In this document: positions 6,713-47,689 of the stretch, in pieces
Layout: every line of letters begins with the position of its first letter
Position numbering within the stretch: the stretch's first letter is position 1
NCBI GenBank assembly: GCA_963788655.1
Contig: CAWBHS010000026.1
Location: 6,262-70,261 of the forward strand
Direction: 5' to 3'
Origin: an uncultured Verrucomicrobiae bacterium
Lineage (GTDB): Bacteria > Verrucomicrobiota > Verrucomicrobiia > Limisphaerales > JAFGQR01
Length of the DNA: 64,000 bases
Position numbers and translations under genes: made by a program
Notes under the pieces: model-generated
The model's input: only the letters and a program-made list of their open reading frames with translations
The model's database searches: none
Told to the model about the DNA's origin: nothing

Positions 6713-8504
6713 ATGCTTGCCAGTTGGACGCCGACAGTGCTGGCGGCAGTTTCGCACCCGGATCCCCGCGACTTCGCCAATGGCCGACTGATTCCGGACG
6801 AAGACTATTGCGATCAACCGCGCATCGTGGTGACGCACGATGGCACGTGGGTCTGCCTAATGACTACAGGCCCCGGTCGCGAAGGTGCCGGCGGACAACA
6901 CGTCGTGGCAACGCGGAGCACCGACCAGGGAAAAACGTGGTTCCCTCGGGTCGATGTCGAACCGGGCCAGGAGCCCAAATCCGCTTATGCCCTGGCGCTG
7001 GTGACTCCCCAGGACCGGATCTATGCCTTCTATTGTTACAATGGCGACCGCATCCGCACCCTGCCCAACGGCAAACCGATCCGGGACGACATGCAAGGTT
7101 GGTTTTGCTACCGCTATTCGGATGATCAAGGCCGGACCTGGTCGCCGCGCTATCGGCTGCCCATGCGGCTTACCGCAGCGGACCGCAACAACGACTGGCA
7201 CGGCAAGCTCCAGATGTTCTGGGCGATTGGTACTCCGGCGATTTTTGGGAACACGGCCATGTTTGGCTTCACCAAACTGGGCCAATACATTCTCCAGGAT
7301 GGTGAAGGTTGGTTTTATCGTTCGGATAATATCCTCACCGAAACCGATCCCGCGAAACTGCAATGGGAATTGCTGCCGGACGGTGACCATGGCGTGCGCG
7401 CGCCGGAGTTTGGTTCGGTGCAGGAGGAATTCGACGTGGTTCATCTGGCCGGGGACGGATTGGTTTTGCGTTTATCGCACCACGCTCGGGCATGCCGCGT
7501 GTTCCTACAGTCACAACGGCGGTCATACGTGGGAAAAGCCTGAGGCCCTACGCTACACACCGGGTGGCGCCGTGGTGAAACAACCACGCGCTTGCACGAA
7601 AATTTGGAAGACTCGCAGCGGGCACTATTTGCTGTGGTATCACAACAACGGCACCCAGACCTACAACAACGGACCCAATGCCGGCAGCCGTAATCTCGCC
7701 TGGTTGAGCGGCGGCACCCTTCGCGACGGTCGCTTGCAATGGTCGCAGCCGGAACTGGTAGCCTACGTGGACGGCGGCTTGGAAGGGTGCAGTTACCCGG
7801 ACTTGATCGAAGCGGGTGGCAAGTTTTACATCTGTGCCACGCAAAAAACCGAGGCCCGCATCCTTGAAGTCGCGCCCGAACTGCTGACCGGAATTTGGAA
7901 CCAGGATGCCGCCCGCACGGTGGTGACCAACGGCCTGGTGCTGGATCTATCCGCCGAAAAACTGGCCGGCAATTCAACGGTGCCCGCCCCGCGGCTGCCC
8001 TGGCTTTGCGGCTCCAATCCGACCCGCCCGCCCGCCGGCCAAAATCGCGGAGGATTTTCCCTTGAACTGGCGGTGAGGCTGACGGATCTCTCGCCAGGGC
8101 AGGTGCTTCTGGATGCGCGCGACGACAGCGGTAAAGGCTTTGCCTTGGTGACCACCGGTCACGGGGCAGTGCGACTGGAACTGAATGATGGTTGGCGCGG
8201 CGCTTTTTGGGATTGCGATCGCGGGCTGCTCGACACGAACACGGTCCATCACCTGGTTGCCATCGTGGATGGTGGTCCCGACTTGATCACCTACGTCGTC
8301 GATGGCCGGCTTTGCGATGGCGGCTCGGCGCGGTTGTTTGGTTATGGTCGTTTCGATCCGGCAATGAAAGAAGTCAACGGCGCCCGCGCGTTGCAGCTTG
8401 CCCCGAACTTGCACGGTCGATTGGAACGGCTCCGCATCTACAACCGCGCGTTGCGCACCAGTGAGGCAATCGGGAATTATCGTGCCAACCTTTCCCCAAG
8501 GTAG
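6713..8504 (+). CDS. BNR/Asp-box sialidase-like beta-propeller fused to a LamG/concanavalin-type domain; 1 frameshift ~7465
   Basis: Asp-box motifs STDQGKTW, SDDQGRTW, SHNGGHTW. C-terminus HHLVAIVDGGPDLITYVVDGRL...LRIYNRALRTSEAIGNY. ORFs 6293..7543 and 7023..8504 join at ggattggttttgcg. Start (ATG 6713) is uncertain. Confidence 0.65.
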
Positions 8505-31268: not shown

Positions 31269-31345
31269 TGGCGGGAGTGGCGGGGCTCGAACCCGTAACC
31301 TCTGCCGTGACAGGGCAGCGCTCTAACCAATTGAGCTACGCCCCC
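31269..31345 (-). tRNA. tRNA-Asp (GTC), CCA encoded
   Basis: Reverse complement: GGGGGCG-TA-GCTC-AATTGGTTA-GAGC-G-CTGCC-CTGTCAC-GGCAG-AGGTT-ACGGG-TTCGAGC-CCCGC-CACTCCC-G-CCA. Cloverleaf with GTC anticodon and G73. Two non-canonical pairs (C6-A67, A49-C65). Confidence 0.85.
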
Positions 31346-35866: not shown

Positions 35867-36376
35867 TCATTCATGGTTCATACGGCTGAGTGCCTCTTCG
35901 ATGACCCAATCATTGCGGCCGTCAGGATGGCAATGGCAATGCGCGGAGAAAAAGCCGCCCCGACAGCGCCAGAACAACGGCCAGATTTGTTCGCGATCGG
36001 TTTGCGGCAGCGTCAAGTCTTCCAATTCACTGGTCGGGAAAAAATGAAAATTACCCTCCCGATGCGGCGGCGGGAGCGTGTGCAGGCGTGGCTTGACTTC
36101 GAAGAGAAACATCAACCAGTGGGCCTGGCCTTCGTAGCCGTGTTCGCTGATGAGCCCGGTCAGGTGCAAATCGTTCGTGGCGAGCGAGAGGCCCAATTCC
36201 TCGTGGGCTTCCCGGCAGGCGCAAGCGTACGGCGACTCGCCGGTGTCGGTGTTCAATTTGCCGCCGCACGGACTCCAGAGTCCGCGGTTTGGTTCCTGGG
36301 CACGTTCCAGCAGCAGCACTTCGTCGCGCGCGTTGAAACAATAAAGCAGCGTCGATATTTTGTAGGGCAACGCCAT
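35867..36376 (-). CDS. NUDIX hydrolase
   Basis: ATG 36376: MALPYKISTLLYCF.... Nudix box GGKLNTDTGESPYACACREAHEELGL. The longer ORF (to 36946) is a read-through extension. Confidence 0.85.
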   Translation of the reverse strand: MALPYKISTLLYCFNARDEVLLLERAQEPNRGLWSPCGGKLNTDTGESPYACACREAHEELGLSLATNDLHLTGLISEHGYEGQAHWLMFLFEVKPRLHTLPPPHREGNFHFFPTSELEDLTLPQTDREQIWPLFWRCRGGFFSAHCHCHPDGRNDWVIEEALSRMNHE

Positions 36377-36547
36377 GCGGGGAGTGAAGCAGGAGCACCG
36401 GCCGAATTCAATGCGAGCTTGGCGTTTGCGTTTTTCCAGACGTTGGGTTGCTTGCGGCGACGAAAGCAGGCAGATTTCCTTCAGTCGCAAGCCACGTTCG
36501 ATCAAGCGGCTGATGATGAACAACAAATCGCAAGAGAAAGTGACTGT

Positions 36548-36820
36548 ATGGCCCAGGCAATGATGGATCCCGCGGAGGTGCGGCGTTTCGCCGAAGAACT
36601 GAAGCGGTTCAACATTGATCTCCAAAACCGGATGGGATTGTTGCAGGCGCGGTTTGCGTCGCTGGGTGAATCCTGGCAGGACCAGGAGCACACCAAGTTT
36701 TCCGATGAGTTCAAACAAACCATGAAGGCGCTGAAGAAATTCGTCGAGATTTCCAACCAGCACGCGCCTTACCTCTTGCGCAAGGCTCAGCGCATCGAAG
36801 AATATCTGAACCAACGTTAA
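36548..36820 (+). CDS. WXG100-like helical-hairpin protein (90 aa; central W-Q-D)
   Basis: MAQAMMDPAEVRRFAEELKRFNIDLQNRMGLLQARFASLGESWQDQEHTKFSDEFKQTMKALKKFVE...: two amphipathic helices around a central Trp turn. The upstream part of ORF 35873..36820 is antisense to the NUDIX gene. Confidence 0.55.
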   Translation: MAQAMMDPAEVRRFAEELKRFNIDLQNRMGLLQARFASLGESWQDQEHTKFSDEFKQTMKALKKFVEISNQHAPYLLRKAQRIEEYLNQR

Positions 36821-36824
36821 CCGG

Positions 36825-37430
36825 ATGGCCGACAAAGCGCATGTTACCTCGGTGGAAGCGCTGCAAGCGTTCCGGACCAGCTTGGTCCTGTACCTCAGCA
36901 AGGCGCGGCCCACCCTGGACGAAGTCGGCGGCGACGTCGTCCGCACCCGTTTGTGGCTGGAGAATGACCAGCGGAGTTATTGGGAGGGACAAGTGCGCCG
37001 GCGTTCGCGAGTTCTGGAACAGGCGCAAGCAGCGCTGTTCGGATCGCGGTTGTCCACGTTTCGGGAAGCCTCGACTGCCGAGCAGGCGGCGGTGAACAAG
37101 GCACGGCGGGCGTTGGCCGAGGCGGAGGAGAAACTGCGGCTGGTGAAACGCTGGTACCGCGAGTTCGAGAACCGGGTGGAACCGCTCGCCAAAGAGTTGG
37201 GCAAATTGCAGTCGTTTCTGACCGATCAAATGCCCAAAGCGCTGGCCTATCTGGCCCAGGCCGTGAAAACCCTCGAGGACTACGCGCAACTGGCGCCCAG
37301 TCCCCCGGCGGAAGCCTCCGGATCGTCCCCCAGTGCGGCCAGTACGGATAATTCCGCATCCTCCGACGCCCCGGCCGCTGCGGCCAATCCCACTGGCGGC
37401 GAAACTGCTTCCCGGAAAGGCAGCCCGTGA
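36825..37430 (+). CDS. helical protein with literal W-x-G turn (RSYWEGQV) and Ala/Ser/Pro-rich tail (201 aa)
   Basis: VEALQAFRTSLVLYLSKARPTLDEVGGDVVRTRLWLENDQRSYWEGQVRRRSRVLEQAQ... Starts 4 nt after the previous stop. Its stop overlaps the next start (GTGA at 37427-37430). Confidence 0.5.
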   Translation: MADKAHVTSVEALQAFRTSLVLYLSKARPTLDEVGGDVVRTRLWLENDQRSYWEGQVRRRSRVLEQAQAALFGSRLSTFREASTAEQAAVNKARRALAEAEEKLRLVKRWYREFENRVEPLAKELGKLQSFLTDQMPKALAYLAQAVKTLEDYAQLAPSPPAEASGSSPSAASTDNSASSDAPAAAANPTGGETASRKGSP

Positions 37431-37639
37431 ACATCAAGGCAAACGGCAACAAGCTGACCGCCATCACGAAAGAGATTTCGAACCAGTGGCAGTTGACGCT
37501 CGACCAATGGCAGGATGCCAAAAGCCGGGAGTTTGAGCGCAAGTATTTGGAAGAACTCTTCGCCGCGGTGGATTCGGCGGTGACGGTCATTGGGCAACTG
37601 GACAAACTTGTCACAAAAATCAGGCAGGACTGTGAGTAG
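37427..37639 (+). CDS. WXG100-like small helical protein (70 aa; W-Q-D)
   Basis: ...ISNQWQLTLDQWQDAKSREFERKYLEELFAAVDSAVTVIGQLDKLVTKI. The WQD..(E/K)F motif parallels ESWQDQEHTKF of 36548..36820. GTG start. Confidence 0.5.
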   Translation: MNIKANGNKLTAITKEISNQWQLTLDQWQDAKSREFERKYLEELFAAVDSAVTVIGQLDKLVTKIRQDCE

Positions 37640-38105
37640 TCATTCGGGTGTCGCCAAAACCATCGAACTGGTGAACCGCCTCAAAGAGACGGTGCGCGAG
37701 TTCACCGTCAACGAGGAAAAACTCACGCACCAGCTTAACGCCGGCATCGGTGAAGCGCGACGTCGCCGGGACGCGGCGACTGAAGAACTGGAGAGCGAAT
37801 CTGCGCTGGCGCTGGATCAGGCGGAGGCCGCCTTTCAGACGGCCCGGCAAGCGCGGGAGTCAAAATATGCGCAGCGCCACGCACGCATTCAGAAAGGTCG
37901 CCGCACCAGCCAAAAGCAGCAACTCCAGCAAATCGACCGCACCGAGGGAGGCCGCAAACACAAGCTCCAAACCGAAACGCTGCAAGCGCAACGGGACCAC
38001 GATAACGGGCTGGCGCAAACGGAAACAACCTCGAAGAATTCAAGCGCAGCCTGGCTGGCCGAGCAGGAACTGCTGCAATCCATTGCAATCGCGAGCATGG
38101 TCTGA
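37632..38105 (+). CDS. coiled-coil protein (157 aa), possibly the frameshifted N-terminus of the downstream ATPase
   Basis: GTG 37632 overlaps the upstream stop by 8 nt. E/Q/R/A-rich heptad-like sequence. Frame 2 is open from 38006 into the next gene, so a single indel near 38020 would fuse the two. Confidence 0.4.
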   Translation: MSSHSGVAKTIELVNRLKETVREFTVNEEKLTHQLNAGIGEARRRRDAATEELESESALALDQAEAAFQTARQARESKYAQRHARIQKGRRTSQKQQLQQIDRTEGGRKHKLQTETLQAQRDHDNGLAQTETTSKNSSAAWLAEQELLQSIAIASMV

Positions 38106-38188
38106 CTTTTCGCGCTTCTAGGAAATTTCGCGACTTGATTTCCCCGACGGAACCGCAGTGGAAAGCGCACCGGTGGCGGACGACAAGG

Positions 38189-41100
38189 ATGAATATCAAT
38201 TGTTCACGTGAACTGCGCCAGCGACTCGATGCTGCCCAGGCCGACTTGGGCCGTTTCCGGAAATTGCTGGTGCCCCATCTTCTCAAATATCCCAGTCTGT
38301 GGTTGGTGATCCTGTTTTGCCTGATCCCTTTGGTTCCGCTACTGCAATACTTCAACATCACTTCCTTTACCTACGTTCATGCGGGCGCAGCAATTGGGGG
38401 ATGTCTCGTGCTGGGCTTCCTGTTGCACTACTTGGGCCGGCGGCAGGGCCAGCCGCTCGCCAAAAAGTTTGCCGCCGAAATTGCCTCGGCCGCTCGTTTG
38501 CACGATGTCTGCCTGGAAACGGCCGAGACGCGGCGCACCCAGGAAATTGCCCGGATCGAAAACGAGTTCGAAAGCCGCAATCAGACGATCGCTCAGGAAT
38601 GGCAGCAGGCCATCGAGACCGCCGCGCAGCTTCGCGAAACCGCGCCGCGAACGCTCGAGGAAAAGGCGGCGCGTGTTTCCGCCCGGAACGAAAAACAACA
38701 TCGCCTAAAGACTGAACAACTCGAACGCCACCACACCGCGGAAGTCCAGCGTTTGAAAGGCGAAGCCGAAACTCGGCAGCGGAAATTGGTGAGCGTTTGC
38801 GCAGCGTTGGAGACGAAGTACAACTCTGATTCCAGACGAACCTGCAGGCTTTGGAAGCCGAATGGAAACAGCAAATCCAGCCGATTTACAAAGTCATCCA
38901 GACCGCCAACGCGGATGCGGAAAAGCTGTTTCCGCCGTGGGACGCGGAACGGTGGGATCGCTGGACGGCTCCGAAGGAATTCGCGCACGCCGCTCAGTTC
39001 GCGCACCTGGACGTGGACGTGGTCAATCTCGCCGGCAGCCCGCCCAAAGATGAGCGACTCGCGCTTCCGGGCCCCAGCCAGTTTTCGTTGCCATTACTGC
39101 TGACGTATCCCCACGAAGGATCGATTCTCTTCGAGACGGTGGCGGCCGGGCGGGAGGAAATGATCGGCGCGCTGAACAATCTCATTTTGCGGTTGCTCTC
39201 GGTGGCGCCGCCGGGACGGTTGAGCTTCACGCTGATTGATCCCGTGGGACTGGGGCAAAGCTTTTCCGGCGTGATGCACCTGGCGGATTACGCCGAGCAC
39301 TTGATCAACAGCCGCATCTGGACCCAGACCGGGCAGATCGAGCAGCGCCTGGCCAACCTGAATGAGCACATGGAGAAGGTCATTCAGATGTATCTCCGGA
39401 ACGAGTACGCCACGATCACGGAATACAATGAACAAGCCGGCAACATCGCGGAGAAATATCACTTTCTGGCGGTCGCCGATTTCCCCTCGAACTTCACCGA
39501 GGTTGCCGCCAAACGGCTTTTGAGCATTGCCACCAGCGGCGCACGTTGTGGAGTTTATACGCTGATTCATTGGGACCGCCGGCAGCCGGTGCCGCCGGAG
39601 TTTGTTCCGGAGGAACTTCGCAAGAGCAGCGTTTGCATCAGTCTCAAAGGCAACACCCTGGTTTTGACCGGCCAACCGATGGCCGGCACGCGCGTACTGC
39701 TCGAAGCCCCGCCATCGCCGGAACGCGCGACCCAATTCATCCAAAAAGTTGGCTTGAGTAGTCGCGACTCGAATCGCATCGAAGTGCCGTTTGCCCACGT
39801 GGCACCAGCCGGAGACGAAGTGTGGAGCCTGGACTCCGCGGACGAACTGCGCGTGCCGATTGGCCGCACCGGCGCCACGAAGTTGCAGTATCTTGCCATC
39901 GGCAAGGACACCCGCCAGCACGGGTTGATCGCGGGCAAGACCGGTTCCGGCAAATCCACGTTGTTTCACGTGATCATCACCAACCTGGCGTTGTGGTGCA
40001 GTCCGGAGCAGGTCGAGTTTTACCTGGTGGATTTCAAGAAAGGCGTGGAATTCAAATGCTACGCGGCCCGACATCTGCCACATGCGCGCGTCGTCGCGAT
40101 CGAGAGCGACCGGGAGTTCGGCTTGAGCGTGCTCCAGCGCGTGGACGCCGAGTTGAAACGGCGCGGCGACTTGTTTCGCAAGCTCGGCGTGCAGAACGTT
40201 CCCGGCTACAAAAAGGCAGGCGGCACCGAAGCCATGCCGCGCTCGCTGCTGATCATTGACGAGTTCCAGGAATTTTTCGTTGAAGACGATCCCATCTCCC
40301 AGACGGCATCGGTGCTTCTGGATCGAATTGTCCGGCAAGGACGCGCGTTTGGCATTCACGTATTGCTGGGTTCCCAAACACTTGGGGGCGCGTACACCGT
40401 AGCGCGCACGACCCTCGGCCAAATGGTCATTCGTATCGCGCTCCAGTGCAACGAAGCCGATGCTTACTTGATCATGGACGACAACAATCCGGCTCCCCGG
40501 CTGCTAACCCGTCCAGGCGAGGGCATTTACAACGACCGGGCCGGGAACCTCGAAGGCAACAGCCCATTCCAGACGGTGTGGCTGCCGGACGCGGTGCGCG
40601 ACGCGTCACTCGAGCAGGTCCGCCAGGTGGCCGACCAAAGCGGGACCGCTTATCCAGGCCCAATCGTGTTTGAAGGAAACGCGCCCGCGGACATTCGGGA
40701 AAACGCCGCGCTGGGCGCGTTGCTGAAGGCCGAATCGATCCAGGTTCCACCTGCAGCGCAAATGTGGCTGGGTGCGCCCAATTCCATCAAAGGTCCGACG
40801 GAAGCGGTGTTCCATCGACAAAGCGGCAATCACCTTTTGATGGTCGGCCAACGCGACGAAGCCATCCTGGCCATTTTCTCAGTTGGCCTGGTTTCGTTGG
40901 CGACGCAATATCCGATCGGCCGGGCGCGGTTCTATTTGCTCGATGGCACGCCGCCGGGTTCGCCGCAACGCGCCTTCCTTGAGCGGGTCAGGCAAGCGAT
41001 CCCGCATGACGCGGTGAGCGTGAAACCAAACGAATTGGCGGACGTGCTGAGCGGATTGGCCGAGGAAGTGAAACGGCATACCGAAGACGTTTCGGCCGGC

Positions 41101-41532
41101 GAAGCACCGGCAACGTTCTTGTTGATTCAAGGGCTTCAGAAATTCGGCAAGCTGCGTTACGAAGAGGATTTTGGGTTTTCGACGGACGATTCCGCAACGA
41201 CGGCCAAGCCGGGCGCATTGCTCAACACACTGATTGATGAAGGCCCCAGCGCGGGCGTCCACGTGATTGCTTCGTGTGACACCTACAACAACGTCAGCCG
41301 GTTCCTCAGCCGGAAGGCCCTGAGCGAGTTTGAAATGCGGGTGCTATTCCAGATGAGCCCGAACGATTCAGCCAGCCTGATCGACAGTCCGAAAGCCAGC
41401 ACGTTGGGGTTGCACCGGGCGATTTTCTACAACGAGCAACAGGGTTACATGGAAACGTTCCGTCCGTATGCCCTGCCGCCCGGTGACTGGATTGAGCACG
41501 TAGGTGGCGAACTCGGGCGGTTGCTGAAATAG
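38189..41532 (+). CDS. FtsK/SpoIIIE-family ATPase with N-terminal 2 TM + coiled coil (EccC/EssC-like topology); 1 frameshift ~38826
   Basis: TMs SLWLVILFCLIPLVPLLQYF and AGAAIGGCLVLGFLLHYLG. Coiled coil (ORF 38135..39103), then ORF 38851..41532 with Walker A GLIAGKTGSGKSTLFH, Walker B SLLIIDEFQEF and RQGRAFGIHVLLGSQ. P-loop-less FtsK-like domains lie on both sides. Confidence 0.8.
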
Positions 41533-41546
41533 CCGTTCTCCCTACC

Positions 41547-42572
41547 CTACCGTTTCCACCAGGAGCGGTGCTGCGGTCTGGGTTCCGGGGCGAAGGACTG
41601 CTGTTGATTGATCTGTTGCACCAGTAACTGGCTGCGCGCCGCGGTCAGGGCCATGATGAAATCATCGTACGTGGGGTAGCGATCATCCGGGTTCTTGGCC
41701 ATCGCGGCGCAAATCGCGTCACTGGTTGGCTGGGTGATGTTGACATTGATGTGATTGGGCGGCGTCAGGGGGGCGTGGACATGGTCGGCCACCACTTGCT
41801 CAATCGTTTCCGCCTCGAACGGCACGTGGCCGGTCATCGCATGGTAGAGCGTGCCGCCCAGGCTGTACATGTCCGAATGAAAATCTTCGCCACGACGCTG
41901 GATCTTTTCGGGCGCCACGTAATAAGGCGTTCCCCATATCGAAGAGCCGTATTCCTCTTCTTCCTCCGCTTTGCGGGCCAGGCCAAAGTCCACCAGTTTC
42001 GGTTCGCCTTCGGCATTATAGAGGATGTTGAGGGGTTTGATGTCGCGATGGAGCAAGTCCTTTTTTAGTGCCGTTTGCAGCGCGGAGGCGACTTTGATGC
42101 CGACGTCCAACACGTCGAGTTCGGGCACGGCCCCTTCGGTTTCAATGCGATTGTCGAGGCTACCATGGTCGGCCAGTTCCATCACCAGGAAAGGTTGCCC
42201 GTCAAAATCGTCGAACGCGTAAATATGGATGATATTGGTGTGATTCAGGGCGGCCCCGGCGCGGGCTTCGCGATAGAAACTATCCATCACTTGCGGATCT
42301 TCAGTCAGTTCGCGTTTGAGGAATTTGACTGCCACCATTCGTTCGAGCGTCAGATCGAACGCCCGGTACACTGTGCCCATGCCGCCGGACGCGATCACTT
42401 CCCGTAATTCGAACTGGCGGATGCGCACCGGAACAATGACCGGGTGGCCGCACTGGTTGCAGGGAGTTGACGCCATCGGTTCACCGCCGCTTGGCAGCCA
42501 AAGCTGTTTCTTGCAGCTTCCACAAATAGATAAACGCAACGGGGCGCTGGGTTGACCGGTGGCCTCGGACAC
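41547..42572 (-). CDS. Ser/Thr protein kinase (Hanks type) with N-terminal zinc-ribbon
   Basis: CGSCKKQL...CNQCGHPV, then GGMGTVYRA, AVKFLK, HRDIKPLNILY, DFGLA and GTPYYVAPE. Confidence 0.9.
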   Translation of the reverse strand: MSEATGQPSAPLRLSICGSCKKQLWLPSGGEPMASTPCNQCGHPVIVPVRIRQFELREVIASGGMGTVYRAFDLTLERMVAVKFLKRELTEDPQVMDSFYREARAGAALNHTNIIHIYAFDDFDGQPFLVMELADHGSLDNRIETEGAVPELDVLDVGIKVASALQTALKKDLLHRDIKPLNILYNAEGEPKLVDFGLARKAEEEEEYGSSIWGTPYYVAPEKIQRRGEDFHSDMYSLGGTLYHAMTGHVPFEAETIEQVVADHVHAPLTPPNHINVNITQPTSDAICAAMAKNPDDRYPTYDDFIMALTAARSQLLVQQINQQQSFAPEPRPQHRSWWKR

Positions 42573-45255: not shown

Positions 45256-46604
45256 ATGCGGCGATTTTACAACATTTTATTTACACTGTCCTTTCTGCTC
45301 AGTTCGCCCTATTACTTTCTCCGGCTGCGTCGGAGGGGCAATTGGCGGGCGGATTTTTCCCAGCGGTTTGGACGTTACAGCTCCAAAGTCAAGCAAGCCG
45401 TCTCCAATCGGCACGTGCTGTGGATCCACGCCGTCAGCGTTGGGGAGGTCAATATCTGCACGCAGCTCGTCAAAGCGCTGGAGCCCCGGCTGCCCAATTT
45501 GAAGATCGTGGTTTCCACCACCACCACGACGGGTATGGGCGAATTGCAAAAGAAATTTCCTTCCCATATCCAAAAAGTCTATTACCCAATTGACCGCCGG
45601 GAGTGACGTCAACCGCGCCCTGATGACGATCCATCCGCAGATTATTGTGCTGGTGGAAGCGGAAATCTGGCCCAATTTTTTATGGCGTTCTCAGGCGCTA
45701 CGCATTCCGTTGTTCTTGGTCAACGCCCGGTTGTCCGAAAAGTCCTACCGTGGCTACAAGCGGTTTGGCTTTTTGTTTCGGCAGTTGTTCGCCGCGTTTA
45801 CCGGGGTTGGGTGCCAAAATGAAACTGACGCCCAGCGGCTGCGCGAGTTGGGTTGCCGGCCGGAGAGCATCTGCGTGGTCGGCAACATGAAGTACGACTC
45901 GGCCAAACTTGAAGAGCGCCGAGTAGTTGATGTGCCCGGGTTGCTACGCCAATTGGGGGTGCCGGACGGCGCGCGCCTGCTCATTGGCGGCAGCACCCAT
46001 GCCGGAGAGGAAGCCATTCTCGGGGAAATCTACCAGCGGTTGCGAAAGCGGTTTCCGGATTTGTTTCTGATTGTGGCACCCCGTCATTTCGAACGCGGCA
46101 AGGAAGCCGGTCGGGATCTGAGCGCGCAGGGCATCAAGTTCGCTTACCGCAGCGAAATGAGCGTGAGTTCCCGCTACGAACCCAACTCCATCGAATGCCT
46201 GTTGTTGAATACGACCGGGGAATTGAAGTACTTCTACGAACATGCCGCGGCCATCTTTGTGGGCAAGAGCCTCGTCGCCGACGGGGGCCAGAATCCGATC
46301 GAGCCGGGCGCGTTGGGCAAAGCCATGGTCTTTGGCCCCAACATGCAGAACTTCGAGGCCATCGCCCGGAGTTTTGTCGCACAGGCGCGCCGCGCTCCAA
46401 GTGCAGAACGCGGCTGAGTTGGAAACCGCGCTGGACCACATTCTGGGTGATGCCCAACTGGCCGCGGAATTGGGCCGCAACGCGGTGCAGGTAGTCAAAG
46501 AAAACTCGGGCGCCATCGAGCGCACCGTAGAGATGATCGTGGAGGCGTTGAAAGACAGTCCGATTTTTGTCGCCGGCAAACGCTTTCGCGCTCGGCAGGG
46601 TTAA
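45256..46604 (+). CDS. waaA: 3-deoxy-D-manno-octulosonic acid (Kdo) transferase; 2 frameshifts (~45598, ~46385)
   Basis: ORF 45256..45606 (LWIHAVSVGEVN), ORF 45590..46417 (EAEIWPNFL, VGNMKYD, GGSTHAGEE, GGQNPIEPGALGKAMVFGP) and ORF 46242..46604 tail (...LQVQNAAELETAL...). Confidence 0.8.
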
Positions 46605-47689
46605 GAGAGAATGCGGCCTTCGTCGAGGAAGATGCCCTTGAAGTTCATTTCCAGCGCCTGAGGATTGGTCGCCTTGGCCAAGGCTTCTTTCTTGGTGACT
46701 TTGCCTTCCTTGACCAGTTGGAACAGCGCCTGGTTGAAATTCAGCATGCCTTCTTCGCCGCCGGTTTCAATCGCCGCGGGGAATTTGTCCAGCCGGTTTT
46801 CTTCGATCATTTTCCGCACCGTGGCGGTGTTGATCAGGATCTCCAGCGCGGGCACCATGCCCGTATGGATGGCCGTGACCATGCGCTGACAAACCACCGC
46901 CCGCAGGGTTCCCGCCAGTTGCCGGCGAATTTGCTCGCGGTCATCGGCCTTGAAGAAATCCAGGATGCGCGTGACGGATTGGGAGGCCGATGGTCGTGTG
47001 GAGTGTGGAGAGCACCAGGTGCCCGGTGTCGGCTGCGCTGATGGCGGCGGTGAAGCTGATCGCGTCGCGCATTTCGCCGATCATGATGACATCCGGGATC
47101 CTGGCGCAGCACGTGCTTGAGCGCGTGGTGGAAGGACAAGGTATCCAAGCCGACTTCCCGCTGTTCGATGACCGATTGGTTGTCTTCAAAGACGTATTCG
47201 ATCGGGATCTTCCAGCGTAATGATGTGCTTCTTGAAGTTGGCGTTGATGTGCTCGATCATCGCGGCCAGCGTGGTGGATTTGCCGGAACCGGTGGAGCCG
47301 GCGACCAGAACAATGCCGCGCGGGGACTCGGCGATTTCCTGTAATACCGGCAGCAGGCCCAGTTCTTCGAAGCTGGGAACCTGCACCTTTACGTAGCGCA
47401 TGGCCAGACAGCACTGGCCGCGTTGTTGAAAGAGATTGGTGCGAAAGCGGCCAACGTCAGGCACGAAATAGGAGAAGTCCACTTCCCGTTCTTCCTTCAG
47501 ACGGTTTTTGGCGTGCGGAGGCACCATGTGCTCCACCACGTTGTTCATCCACTCCTCAGTGGGGAAGGGGCACTCGATGGCGACGAGTTGGCGATTGATG
47601 CGGAAGATCACCGGCGTTCCGATCTTGAGATGCACATCGGAAGCCCCGCCTTCAACGGCGGTTTTCAAAATGCGATTGAAGTTTTCCAT
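46601..47689 (-). CDS. pilT: type IV pilus retraction ATPase PilT/PilU family; about 3 frameshifts (~47205, ~47095, ~46985)
   Basis: [10 protein letters not shown], Walker [23 protein letters not shown](I)[18 protein letters not shown] and [11 protein letters not shown], spread over ORFs 47186..47689, 46834..47148, 46941..47414 and 46601..46897. Confidence 0.85.

Follow-up and report, generated by a model that had tools for sequence, protein, structure and literature searches.

Can a bacterium with an outer membrane encode a minimal type VII secretion system (T7SS)? The question is raised by a locus in a stretch of 64,000 nucleotides (the window) from an uncultured Verrucomicrobiae bacterium of the order Limisphaerales (contig CAWBHS010000026.1, assembly GCA_963788655.1). 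A first-pass annotation, made from the letters alone, described at positions 36548-42572 a type VII-like module of three WXG100-like proteins, a coiled-coil protein and an EccC/EssC-like FtsK/SpoIIIE ATPase, next to a Ser/Thr kinase, in a diderm host. The host is indeed diderm: the window carries waaA, recognised as a Pfam Kdo-transferase match. The locus is a tightly coupled operon of four genes, designated g1, g2, g3 and the ATPase gene. It probably represents the type VII-like "solo WXG + YueA/EccC-like ATPase" class of Gram-negative lineages, in the form found in the Planctomycetes-Verrucomicrobia-Chlamydiae (PVC) group, and by analogy with characterised relatives would act as a minimal T7SS-like exporter. 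This reading is favoured on balance, with real room for doubt.

All four genes lie on the plus strand. The first three open reading frames (ORFs) are present as described, with the motifs then quoted. The 90-aa product of g1 (36548..36820) is a helical hairpin of the WXG100 family with a W-x-D turn (SWQDQEH). The 201-aa product of g2 (36825..37430) combines a long two-helix hairpin with a disordered tail and belongs to an uncharacterised family, and g3 (37427..37639) encodes a 70-aa helical protein with W28-x-D30, a candidate divergent WXG100-like partner. The ATPase gene extends from 37632 to 41532. The junctions are likewise as claimed: a 4-nt gap, a GTGA overlap and an 8-nt overlap at 37632-37639. 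Of the "five coupled genes" that had been proposed, the coupling stands, whereas the number falls to four. The supposed fourth gene, for a separate 157-aa coiled-coil protein (37632-38105, GTG start at 37632), is the N-terminus of the ATPase. ATPase homologues are single ORFs of ~1290-1320 aa whose N-termini (MSSHLGVEQTLELL..., and MSSHLGV... in those of ~1296 aa) match the product of this ORF, and tblastn with two homologues gives collinear ATPase segments at 37632-38084, 37889-38860 and 38851-41529 in three frames. Nor is there an intact ATPase ORF of ~1100 aa; the gene is spread over three reading frames.

The arrangement is widely conserved. A scan of the GTDB species representatives found at least 513 loci with relatives, and 80 were fetched, with 43-69% identity to the query homologue P0003. 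Synteny was counted over 83 loci, flanking genes and kinases over 82, and mean pairwise identities over 69. Immediately 5' of the ATPase gene, co-oriented with it and in constant order, g1 is found in 72 of the 83 loci, g2 in 73 and g3 in 76, and the missing genes mostly coincide with contig ends. The order g1-g2-g3-ATPase is thereby kept in ~70 of 83 loci from several orders of Verrucomicrobiota. The fetched relatives are labelled Limisphaerales/Pedosphaera, Chthoniobacterales, Verrucomicrobiales (Prosthecobacter, Luteolibacter, Roseibacillus), Akkermansiaceae and Methylacidiphilales. Syntenic in ~70 independent genomes, the block far exceeds a chance arrangement. Together with Planctomycetota-type contigs, these loci show the conservation beyond this genome on which the first-pass annotation had made its proposal depend. 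Clustering of all flanking ORFs gave no other conserved neighbour family, and the neighbours of the block in two of the loci (L001 and L003) are mutually unrelated.

The four proteins differ in how strongly they are conserved. Mean pairwise identity is 0.72 for g1, 0.40 for g2, 0.42 for g3 and 0.49 for the whole ATPase, within which the N-terminal third (0.22-0.25) is set apart from the active domain (0.79). ATPase identity declines with taxonomic distance, from Limisphaerales through Chthoniobacterales to Verrucomicrobiales/Akkermansiaceae. The G+C content across 36-42 kb of the window is not anomalous and thus gives no sign of recent transfer. The cassette appears to be fixed in Verrucomicrobiota and vertically retained.

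The link to WXG100 proteins is carried by g1, which is encoded with the ATPase and, at 90 aa, is close to the ~100 aa of the family. It scores 39.6 bits against Pfam WXG100 (PF06013; cut-off 27.3), all 37 of the family members tested match this model, and the score against NCBIfam TIGR03930 (30.9 bits) lies under the cut-off of 44.85. Searched against the Protein Data Bank (PDB), the g1 family profile matches Helicobacter pylori HP0062 (3fx7, 2gts) over its full length at E 9e-11; EsxB structures (~1e-6) and Staphylococcus aureus EsxA (4e-3) are weaker. The turn of the hairpin is an invariant W43-x-D45 and not W-x-G. g1 is the most conserved protein of the cassette, and every member is exactly 90 aa long. 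Of the three WXG100-like proteins originally proposed, g1 is thus upheld, g2 is not (it gives no WXG100 or LXG signal) and g3 gives a weak signal, in 4 of 38 members. Judged by sequence profiles, g1 is the only demonstrable WXG100 protein of the cassette. Longer proteins with g1-like N-termini were considered as WXG-toxin fusions and set aside, being by appearance mostly chimeric or frameshifted gene calls; among them only P0391 has a C-terminus, sub-threshold, that resembles Peptidase_C39.

The ATPase begins with a coiled-coil region of ~190 aa, followed by a transmembrane (TM) hairpin, a second coiled coil and three alpha/beta domains. By tblastn and frameshift-aware alignment, the first of its three segments (37632..38030) covers the N-terminal cytoplasmic coiled-coil region. 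The second (38030..38830) covers the remainder of that region, the TM hairpin and the post-membrane coiled coil, and the third (38830..41532) the three tandem FtsK/SpoIIIE-like domains (Pfam FtsK_SpoIIIE, 3.6e-33). The two TM helices of the first-pass annotation are found as hydrophobic helices at 38294-38353 and 38381-38437, joined by a loop of ~9 aa. The Walker A (GKTGSGKST, 39934-39960) and Walker B (LLIIDEFQ, 40246-40269) motifs are also where they had been placed, within domain B (~39835-40650), which is predicted to be active. Domains A (~38962-39780) and C (~40732-41529) are degenerate, and in domain C the sequence VGQRDEA replaces the P-loop. Among 27 sequences the Walker motifs are invariant and confined to domain B, and domain C has the family motif VGQ(R)(D/E)EA at the P-loop position. 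In hhalign comparisons, domain C aligns with domain B at 97% probability (E 4e-11); the homology of A with C is weaker (E 1.4e-3), with motifs in the same register. Sequence-profile searches of the PDB gave nothing significant for either degenerate domain, with EccC5 D2 at E 0.22 for domain C and no match for domain A. Full-length homologues showed neither an FHA domain nor any other N-terminal Pfam domain.

The claim that the ATPase is EccC/EssC-like is supported by three kinds of comparison. In the PDB sequence search the best matches are Thermomonospora curvata EccC (1.6e-32), EccC5 (3e-27) and Bacillus subtilis YukB (5e-24), ahead of FtsK (8.5e-9) and the coupling protein TcpA (1.2e-8). 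The NCBIfam models give the same order, with 118.3 bits for EccCa (TIGR03924; cut-off 509), 88.2 for EccCb (TIGR03925; cut-off 347), 86.2 for EssC (TIGR03928; cut-off 778) and 27.4 for FtsK (NF007615; cut-off 1566). Foldseek places EccC (4nh0) at the top (E 1e-21), aligned across all three domains, followed by EssC (7e-15), EccC D2-D3 (~1e-14) and FtsK (2e-6); the query was an AlphaFold2 (AF2) model of the 900-aa C-terminal part with a mean pLDDT of 58.6, so this ranking is supportive only. Because EccC/EssC proteins lead in all three, the ATPase belongs with the T7SS ATPases and not with the DNA translocases, the grouping that would have spoken against the original proposal. The cassette thus contains a membrane-anchored, multi-domain FtsK/SpoIIIE ATPase that is nearer to EccC/EssC than to DNA translocases. 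On the strength of these profiles, it is a distinct branch among the T7SS ATPases and not an EccC or EssC orthologue.

An AF2 model of g2 (pLDDT 82.7) shows two antiparallel helices of ~73 residues each, 5-77 and 84-156, that form one hairpin, followed by a disordered, Ala/Ser/Pro-rich tail (157-201). The literal WXG of g2 is a W-E-G in the middle of helix 1 in this model and not at a hairpin turn. No significant Pfam or PDB sequence match was found for g2, none of 40 family members matches LXG (PF04740) or gives a WXG100 signal, and Foldseek returned only generic coiled-coil hairpins (best E 0.039). The proposal of a WXG100, LXG or EspA-like protein was therefore rejected. Weak matches to YscO in 8 of 40 members, and to FliH, are most simply explained by coiled-coil composition. 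Two relatives from other lineages are informative: both have a hairpin of ~165 aa, followed in L090 (2970-3974) by an Imm33-like domain (42.7 bits against a cut-off of 27) and in L091 (6712-8133) by a GNAT acetyltransferase domain (32.5 bits against 20.7). A hairpin fused to differing C-terminal domains is as a carrier or trafficking domain would predict, and the lineage-variable C-termini suggest a modular carrier-plus-cargo arrangement.

The third protein, g3, is harder to place. Its family alignment shows W21, W28-x-D30 and F36 without variation, and D-C-E at the C-terminus. Of 38 members, 4 match WXG100 (best E 8.7e-4) and one matches WXG100_2 (5.9e-5), hhalign aligns the W-x-D motifs of g3 and g1 at E 0.016, and the g3 profile gave no match in the PDB. 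Cross-matches of the g3 hidden Markov model reach 1e-4 to 1e-5 in tiny databases, but g1 compared with g2 gives similar values, so these matches are not discriminating. From such sequence likeness, g3 may be a divergent WXG100-like partner. The g3 stop overlaps the GTG start of the ATPase gene by 8 nt in 54 of 76 loci. In the window, g3 ends in Cys-Glu-stop (TGT GAG TAG; 37625-37639), and this end contains the GTG start, as does the equivalent site in the same 54 loci; part of the apparent D-C-E conservation is thus due to dual coding.

Relatives of the cassette are not confined to Verrucomicrobiota. When g1 was used as the query of an exhaustive search, 867 clusters (50% identity) were retrieved at E <= 1e-3, including 90-aa relatives with 47-53% identity that carry the NCBI names Planctomycetia, Phycisphaerales, Humisphaera and a Thermodesulfobacteriota metagenome-assembled genome (MAG). 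A TARA marine contig and a Humisphaera-like contig (L090) have the same four-gene block, all four genes being detectably homologous. The same block occurs in L089, whose g1 protein (P0446) is identical to that of L090, with an insertion sequence interrupting it: an ISAZ013-type DDE transposase gene (7332-8488) lies between g1 and g2. The ATPase gene of L089 (10086-13623) is called as two ORFs of 345 and 808 aa, a split that reflects either genuine disruption or nanopore indels. In two Planctomycetia loci, L084 and L085, the g1 homologue (8001-8273 in each) stands alone, with no g2, g3 or ATPase gene within 8 kb; the opposite strand carries a PP2C phosphatase gene ~2.5 kb downstream. Typical Verrucomicrobia-type cassettes were also found on contigs labelled Klebsiella, Bifidobacterium, Acidoferrum, Sulfopaludibacter and Bacteroidetes (L036, L043, L013, L015, L020, L051); these labels are probably wrong, or the contigs mis-binned.

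A more distant variant, L091, has the order ATPase-g1-g2-g3 and an ATPase without TM helices. The region (L091:1152-9269) encodes a TPR protein with two TM-like segments, a 44-aa ORF, a 956-aa FtsK-like ATPase, g1, the g2-GNAT fusion and a g3-like protein, and its g1 cluster includes a Thermodesulfobacteriota-labelled MAG. The membrane anchor of this variant may be supplied in trans. The TM hairpin of the ATPase is conserved in the PVC forms.

How does the locus relate to known systems? An ATPase of this type with a solo WXG protein has been described, from comparative genomics, in verrucomicrobia and planctomycetes in the passage of Zhang et al. 2012 (PMC3482391) that deals with the class. 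The locus shares with that description the lineage, the solo WXG100 gene and the three FtsK-like domains with Walker A and B motifs in the middle one only. The window therefore holds a further member of a known, uncharacterised type, with its domain architecture and its occurrence in Verrucomicrobiota and Planctomycetota beside a stand-alone WXG protein. The same passage does not mention partners such as g2 and g3, the N-terminal coiled coil or the overlapping starts. It speaks of "mobile versions of T7SS", whereas here the cassette looks fixed in the phylum and has a normal G+C content. PMC6471051 cites Sutcliffe 2011 for the presence of WXG100 proteins in Verrucomicrobia, Lentisphaerae, Cyanobacteria and Proteobacteria.

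Among solved structures the closest relative of g1 is HP0062, a hairpin dimer with a W-R-D turn for which a chaperone or adaptor role has been considered (PMC3397514). It resembles g1 in its W-x-D turn, its length (~86-90 aa), the absence of a signal peptide and its genomic link to an FtsK/SpoIIIE ATPase, HP0066. HP0062 and HP0066 have been termed a minimal T7SS set, and such pairs adjoin TerY-P kinase/phosphatase triads (PMC4978471). According to PMC4978471, a DnaK homologue and an HNH/EndoVII nuclease accompany the H. pylori cluster; neither is present at the window locus.

The locus also resembles the T7SSa (ESX) systems of Actinomycetota, which likewise combine a WXG100 protein with a membrane-bound, multi-domain FtsK-like ATPase anchored by a two-helix TM hairpin; EccC provides the best sequence and fold matches of the window ATPase (4nh0, 7np7). 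In the established structure of EccC, a degenerate ATPase-like domain precedes the main catalytic domain, as in the window ATPase. Unlike T7SSa, the window ATPase has one competent P-loop domain and a long N-terminal coiled coil, g1 has W-x-D in place of W-x-G, and the host has a lipopolysaccharide (LPS) outer membrane and not a mycomembrane. No Pfam families of EccB, EccD, EccE or MycP were found near the block in L001 and L003, and no flanking family is conserved. The T7SSb (Ess) systems of Bacillota share with the cassette an EsxA-like core and an EssC-like ATPase, and place small helical partners beside a longer helical protein, as in the tripartite LXG-Lap complex (PMC10801868). The likeness of g2 to the LXG-Lap proteins is limited to gene neighbourhood and to topology (a variable C-terminal part after a long hairpin). 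In contrast to T7SSb, the window ATPase has no FHA domain, the conserved-neighbour search over 82 loci found no EssA, EssB/YukC, EsaA or EsaB/YukD-like gene, and no toxin or immunity genes lie near the block. The earlier observation that no EssA, EssB, EccB, EccD or MycP-type gene accompanies the block thus extends to the neighbours in L001 and L003 and to the flanking ORFs of 82 loci. The 2024 survey of T7SS variants covers Gram-positive phyla only, and kinases are often found near its variants T7SSc-j (Garrett et al. 2024).

These likenesses suggest how the module could work. The ATPase, the sole membrane protein of the module, would oligomerise in the inner membrane, probably as a hexamer. 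Its degenerate flanking domains would bind the helical cargo (g1, g3 and g2), and the central domain would drive folded helical bundles through the cytoplasmic membrane to the periplasm. The exported material may be dimers of g1; alternatively, g1/g3 would travel with g2, which would serve as an LXG-like carrier with a lineage-dependent C-terminal part. By analogy with the better-known systems, we infer how many subunits assemble, what is carried, which way it moves and how, if at all, it crosses the outer membrane. A bolder version is tentative and rather doubtful: that the cassette is inherited vertically in PVC bacteria and is sufficient by itself as a minimal type VII-like translocon, in which the ATPase alone, as a hexamer with 12 TM helices, would form the inner-membrane channel and export a tripartite g1-g2-g3 complex. 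g2 would be the LXG-analogous carrier, ending by lineage in a disordered tail, an Imm33-like domain or a GNAT domain. The whole would be an ancestral-looking or streamlined T7SS under an LPS outer membrane, with a housekeeping role in the envelope and not in warfare.

The broken reading frame of the ATPase gene bears on whether the module is functional in this genome. Alignment of four homologous proteins to the DNA, with frameshifts allowed, puts -1 shifts at 38030 and 38830-38848, and the two closest homologues suggest a possible compensated pair near 38155-38210. The catalytic part (38851-41532) is consequently read in another frame than the part with the TM helices (38135-39103). Both clear shifts are 1-nt homopolymer deletions, in a C-run (AACC^TCG, ~38030) and a T-run (GATT^CCAG, ~38830). 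Other genes of the window are broken in the same way. In the waaA/pilT-like region (45256-46604, plus strand, and 46601-47689, minus strand), waaA is frame-split, with Pfam profile positions 3-78 and 82-178 falling in successive ORFs, and the pilT-like T2SSE ATPase gene is split into at least two ORFs. Since waaA and the pilT-like gene are affected alike, the assembly appears prone to indels and the break in the ATPase gene is most likely an artefact; probably, assembly indels caused the ATPase gene to be mis-called as three ORFs. Programmed frameshifting was rejected, as the homologues are single ORFs, no slippery heptamer is present and other window genes are broken too.

The kinase next to the ATPase gene deserves separate mention. 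This zinc-ribbon Ser/Thr (Hanks-type) kinase (41547..42572, minus strand; Pfam Pkinase 7.8e-46; CxxC...CxxC N-terminus) converges on the ATPase gene, 14 nt from its stop, as first described, but the functional link implied by that position does not hold up. Besides the window, a convergent kinase gene follows the ATPase gene in only 3 of 82 fetched loci, L008 (10105-11043), L016 (10110-11297) and L033 (10155-11336), on the minus strand in each, and the kinase was therefore rejected as a conserved part of the system. The three kinases are 26-27% identical to that of the window, and their loci are Verrucomicrobiae MAGs that are not the closest relatives of the window. The adjacency is either recurrent, or ancient and mostly lost.

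Several other accounts of the locus have to be weighed against an exporter. That the ATPase gene is a genuine pseudogene and the module is decaying in this genome is improbable. There are at least two, possibly four, frameshifts within 37632-38850, and the public record for this contig has the same broken 893-aa product (P0001). However, both clear shifts are single-nucleotide deletions in homopolymer runs, the essential or housekeeping waaA and pilT-like genes 4-6 kb away are similarly split, the 2.7-kb catalytic part is unbroken and 70-76% identical to homologues, and g1-g3 are intact. It is hardly credible that the ATPase is a DNA translocase, an FtsK paralogue or conjugative coupling protein, with the small genes as unrelated passengers. 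The Pfam FtsK_SpoIIIE domain and the weak FtsK and TcpA matches would allow for it, yet these matches are at least 20 orders of magnitude worse than that of EccC, and two of the three domains lack P-loops. The protein falls far below the FtsK equivalog level and does not show the alpha/beta/gamma architecture; it ends directly after domain C, so that a gamma-type domain could not follow at the C-terminus. That g1-g3 keep strict synteny and a start/stop overlap with the ATPase gene in ~70 genomes is inconsistent with passengers, and no relaxase, integrase or type IV secretion genes flank the block. A kinase-regulated conflict or anti-phage system, of the TerY-P triad or MADS-like kind, in which an FtsK-like ATPase and the kinase act jointly, is very unlikely. 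The PADLOC models SspH (2e-27) and mad8 (2.9e-21) match the P-loop domain of the ATPase, the kinase matches the PD-T4-6 and mad6 models, and a convergent kinase recurs in L008, L016 and L033. In some strains of H. pylori, and in other bacteria, WxG and FtsK genes also lie beside a TerY-P kinase/phosphatase triad (PMC4978471). Against this, the PADLOC matches of the ATPase reach no further than its generic FtsK P-loop domain, the 114 bits of the kinase fall short of the MAD6 cut-off of 460, and the other kinases are few, only 26% identical and absent from the closest relatives. The ATPase has no FHA domain, and the block has no conserved methyltransferase, nuclease, TerY/vWA, PP2C or FHA gene beside it, so neither the family thresholds nor the partner genes of MADS or other PADLOC systems are in evidence.

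A more serious contender, still fairly unlikely, is that nothing is secreted and that the membrane-tethered ATPase and the WXG100-like proteins form a machine at the cytoplasmic face, or an adaptor or chaperone complex, in envelope assembly or signalling. Several observations keep it alive, and much of what speaks for it also weighs against export in general. g1 is unusually conserved for a secreted protein (0.72, compared with 0.49 for the ATPase), close to the level of the catalytic domain (0.79), and has a fixed length; such conservation would suit a core part of the machine no less than a cargo. The cassette is apparently phylum-wide and vertically retained, and no toxin or immunity genes accompany the block. 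No partner membrane component, channel, periplasm-spanning or outer-membrane component is encoded with it, and the periplasmic loop of the ATPase is only ~9 residues long. The ATPase of L091, a variant in a different gene order, is soluble, and no secretion is on record for any member of the class, HP0062 included, itself discussed as a possible chaperone or adaptor (PMC3397514). Export is further weakened by the broken ATPase frame, by the position of the ATPase far under the EccC/EssC equivalog cut-offs, with one catalytic domain in contrast to the usual arrangement, and by g2 and g3, which are not linked to WXG100 or LXG with significance. On the other side, the characterised relatives in the ATPase clade (EccC, EssC/YukB) are all protein exporters with WXG100 partners, the TM hairpin is kept in the PVC forms, and EsxA of T7SSb is both highly conserved and secreted (PMC10801868). 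A minimal T7SS-like exporter stays the preferred reading.

A NUDIX hydrolase gene (35867-36340, minus strand) lies upstream of and divergent from g1, and the long ORFs at 35867-36946 (minus strand) and 35873-36820 (plus strand) are stop-to-stop artefacts that overlap the NUDIX gene and g1. ARAGORN places a tRNA-Asp (GTC) at 31269-31345 on the minus strand, and long spurious ORFs overlap it on both strands. A scan for promoters and terminators gave nothing exceeding shuffle expectation, and the rest of the window contains no paralogues of g1, g2 or g3.

Finally, the cassette bears on a system that current T7SS reviews and surveys present as a Gram-positive and mycobacterial trait. In the literature searched, no experimental work on WXG100 proteins or T7SS of Verrucomicrobia, Planctomycetes or Akkermansia was found, and no dedicated experimental study of this compact four-gene relative, which occurs across Verrucomicrobiota and on Planctomycetota-type contigs. 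The locus also holds a lesson for annotation, as homopolymer indels probably caused one ATPase gene to be mis-called as three ORFs. Prosthecobacter, Luteolibacter and Chthoniobacter include cultured strains. MAGs of these genera carry the cassette, and the question of its function would be tractable if cultured strains carry it as well. If export proves true, the cassette would reveal the irreducible core of a T7SS, one ATPase with helical substrates. It would also reveal how secretion of this kind accommodates a periplasm and an LPS outer membrane, and what role WXG100 proteins play without attached toxins.

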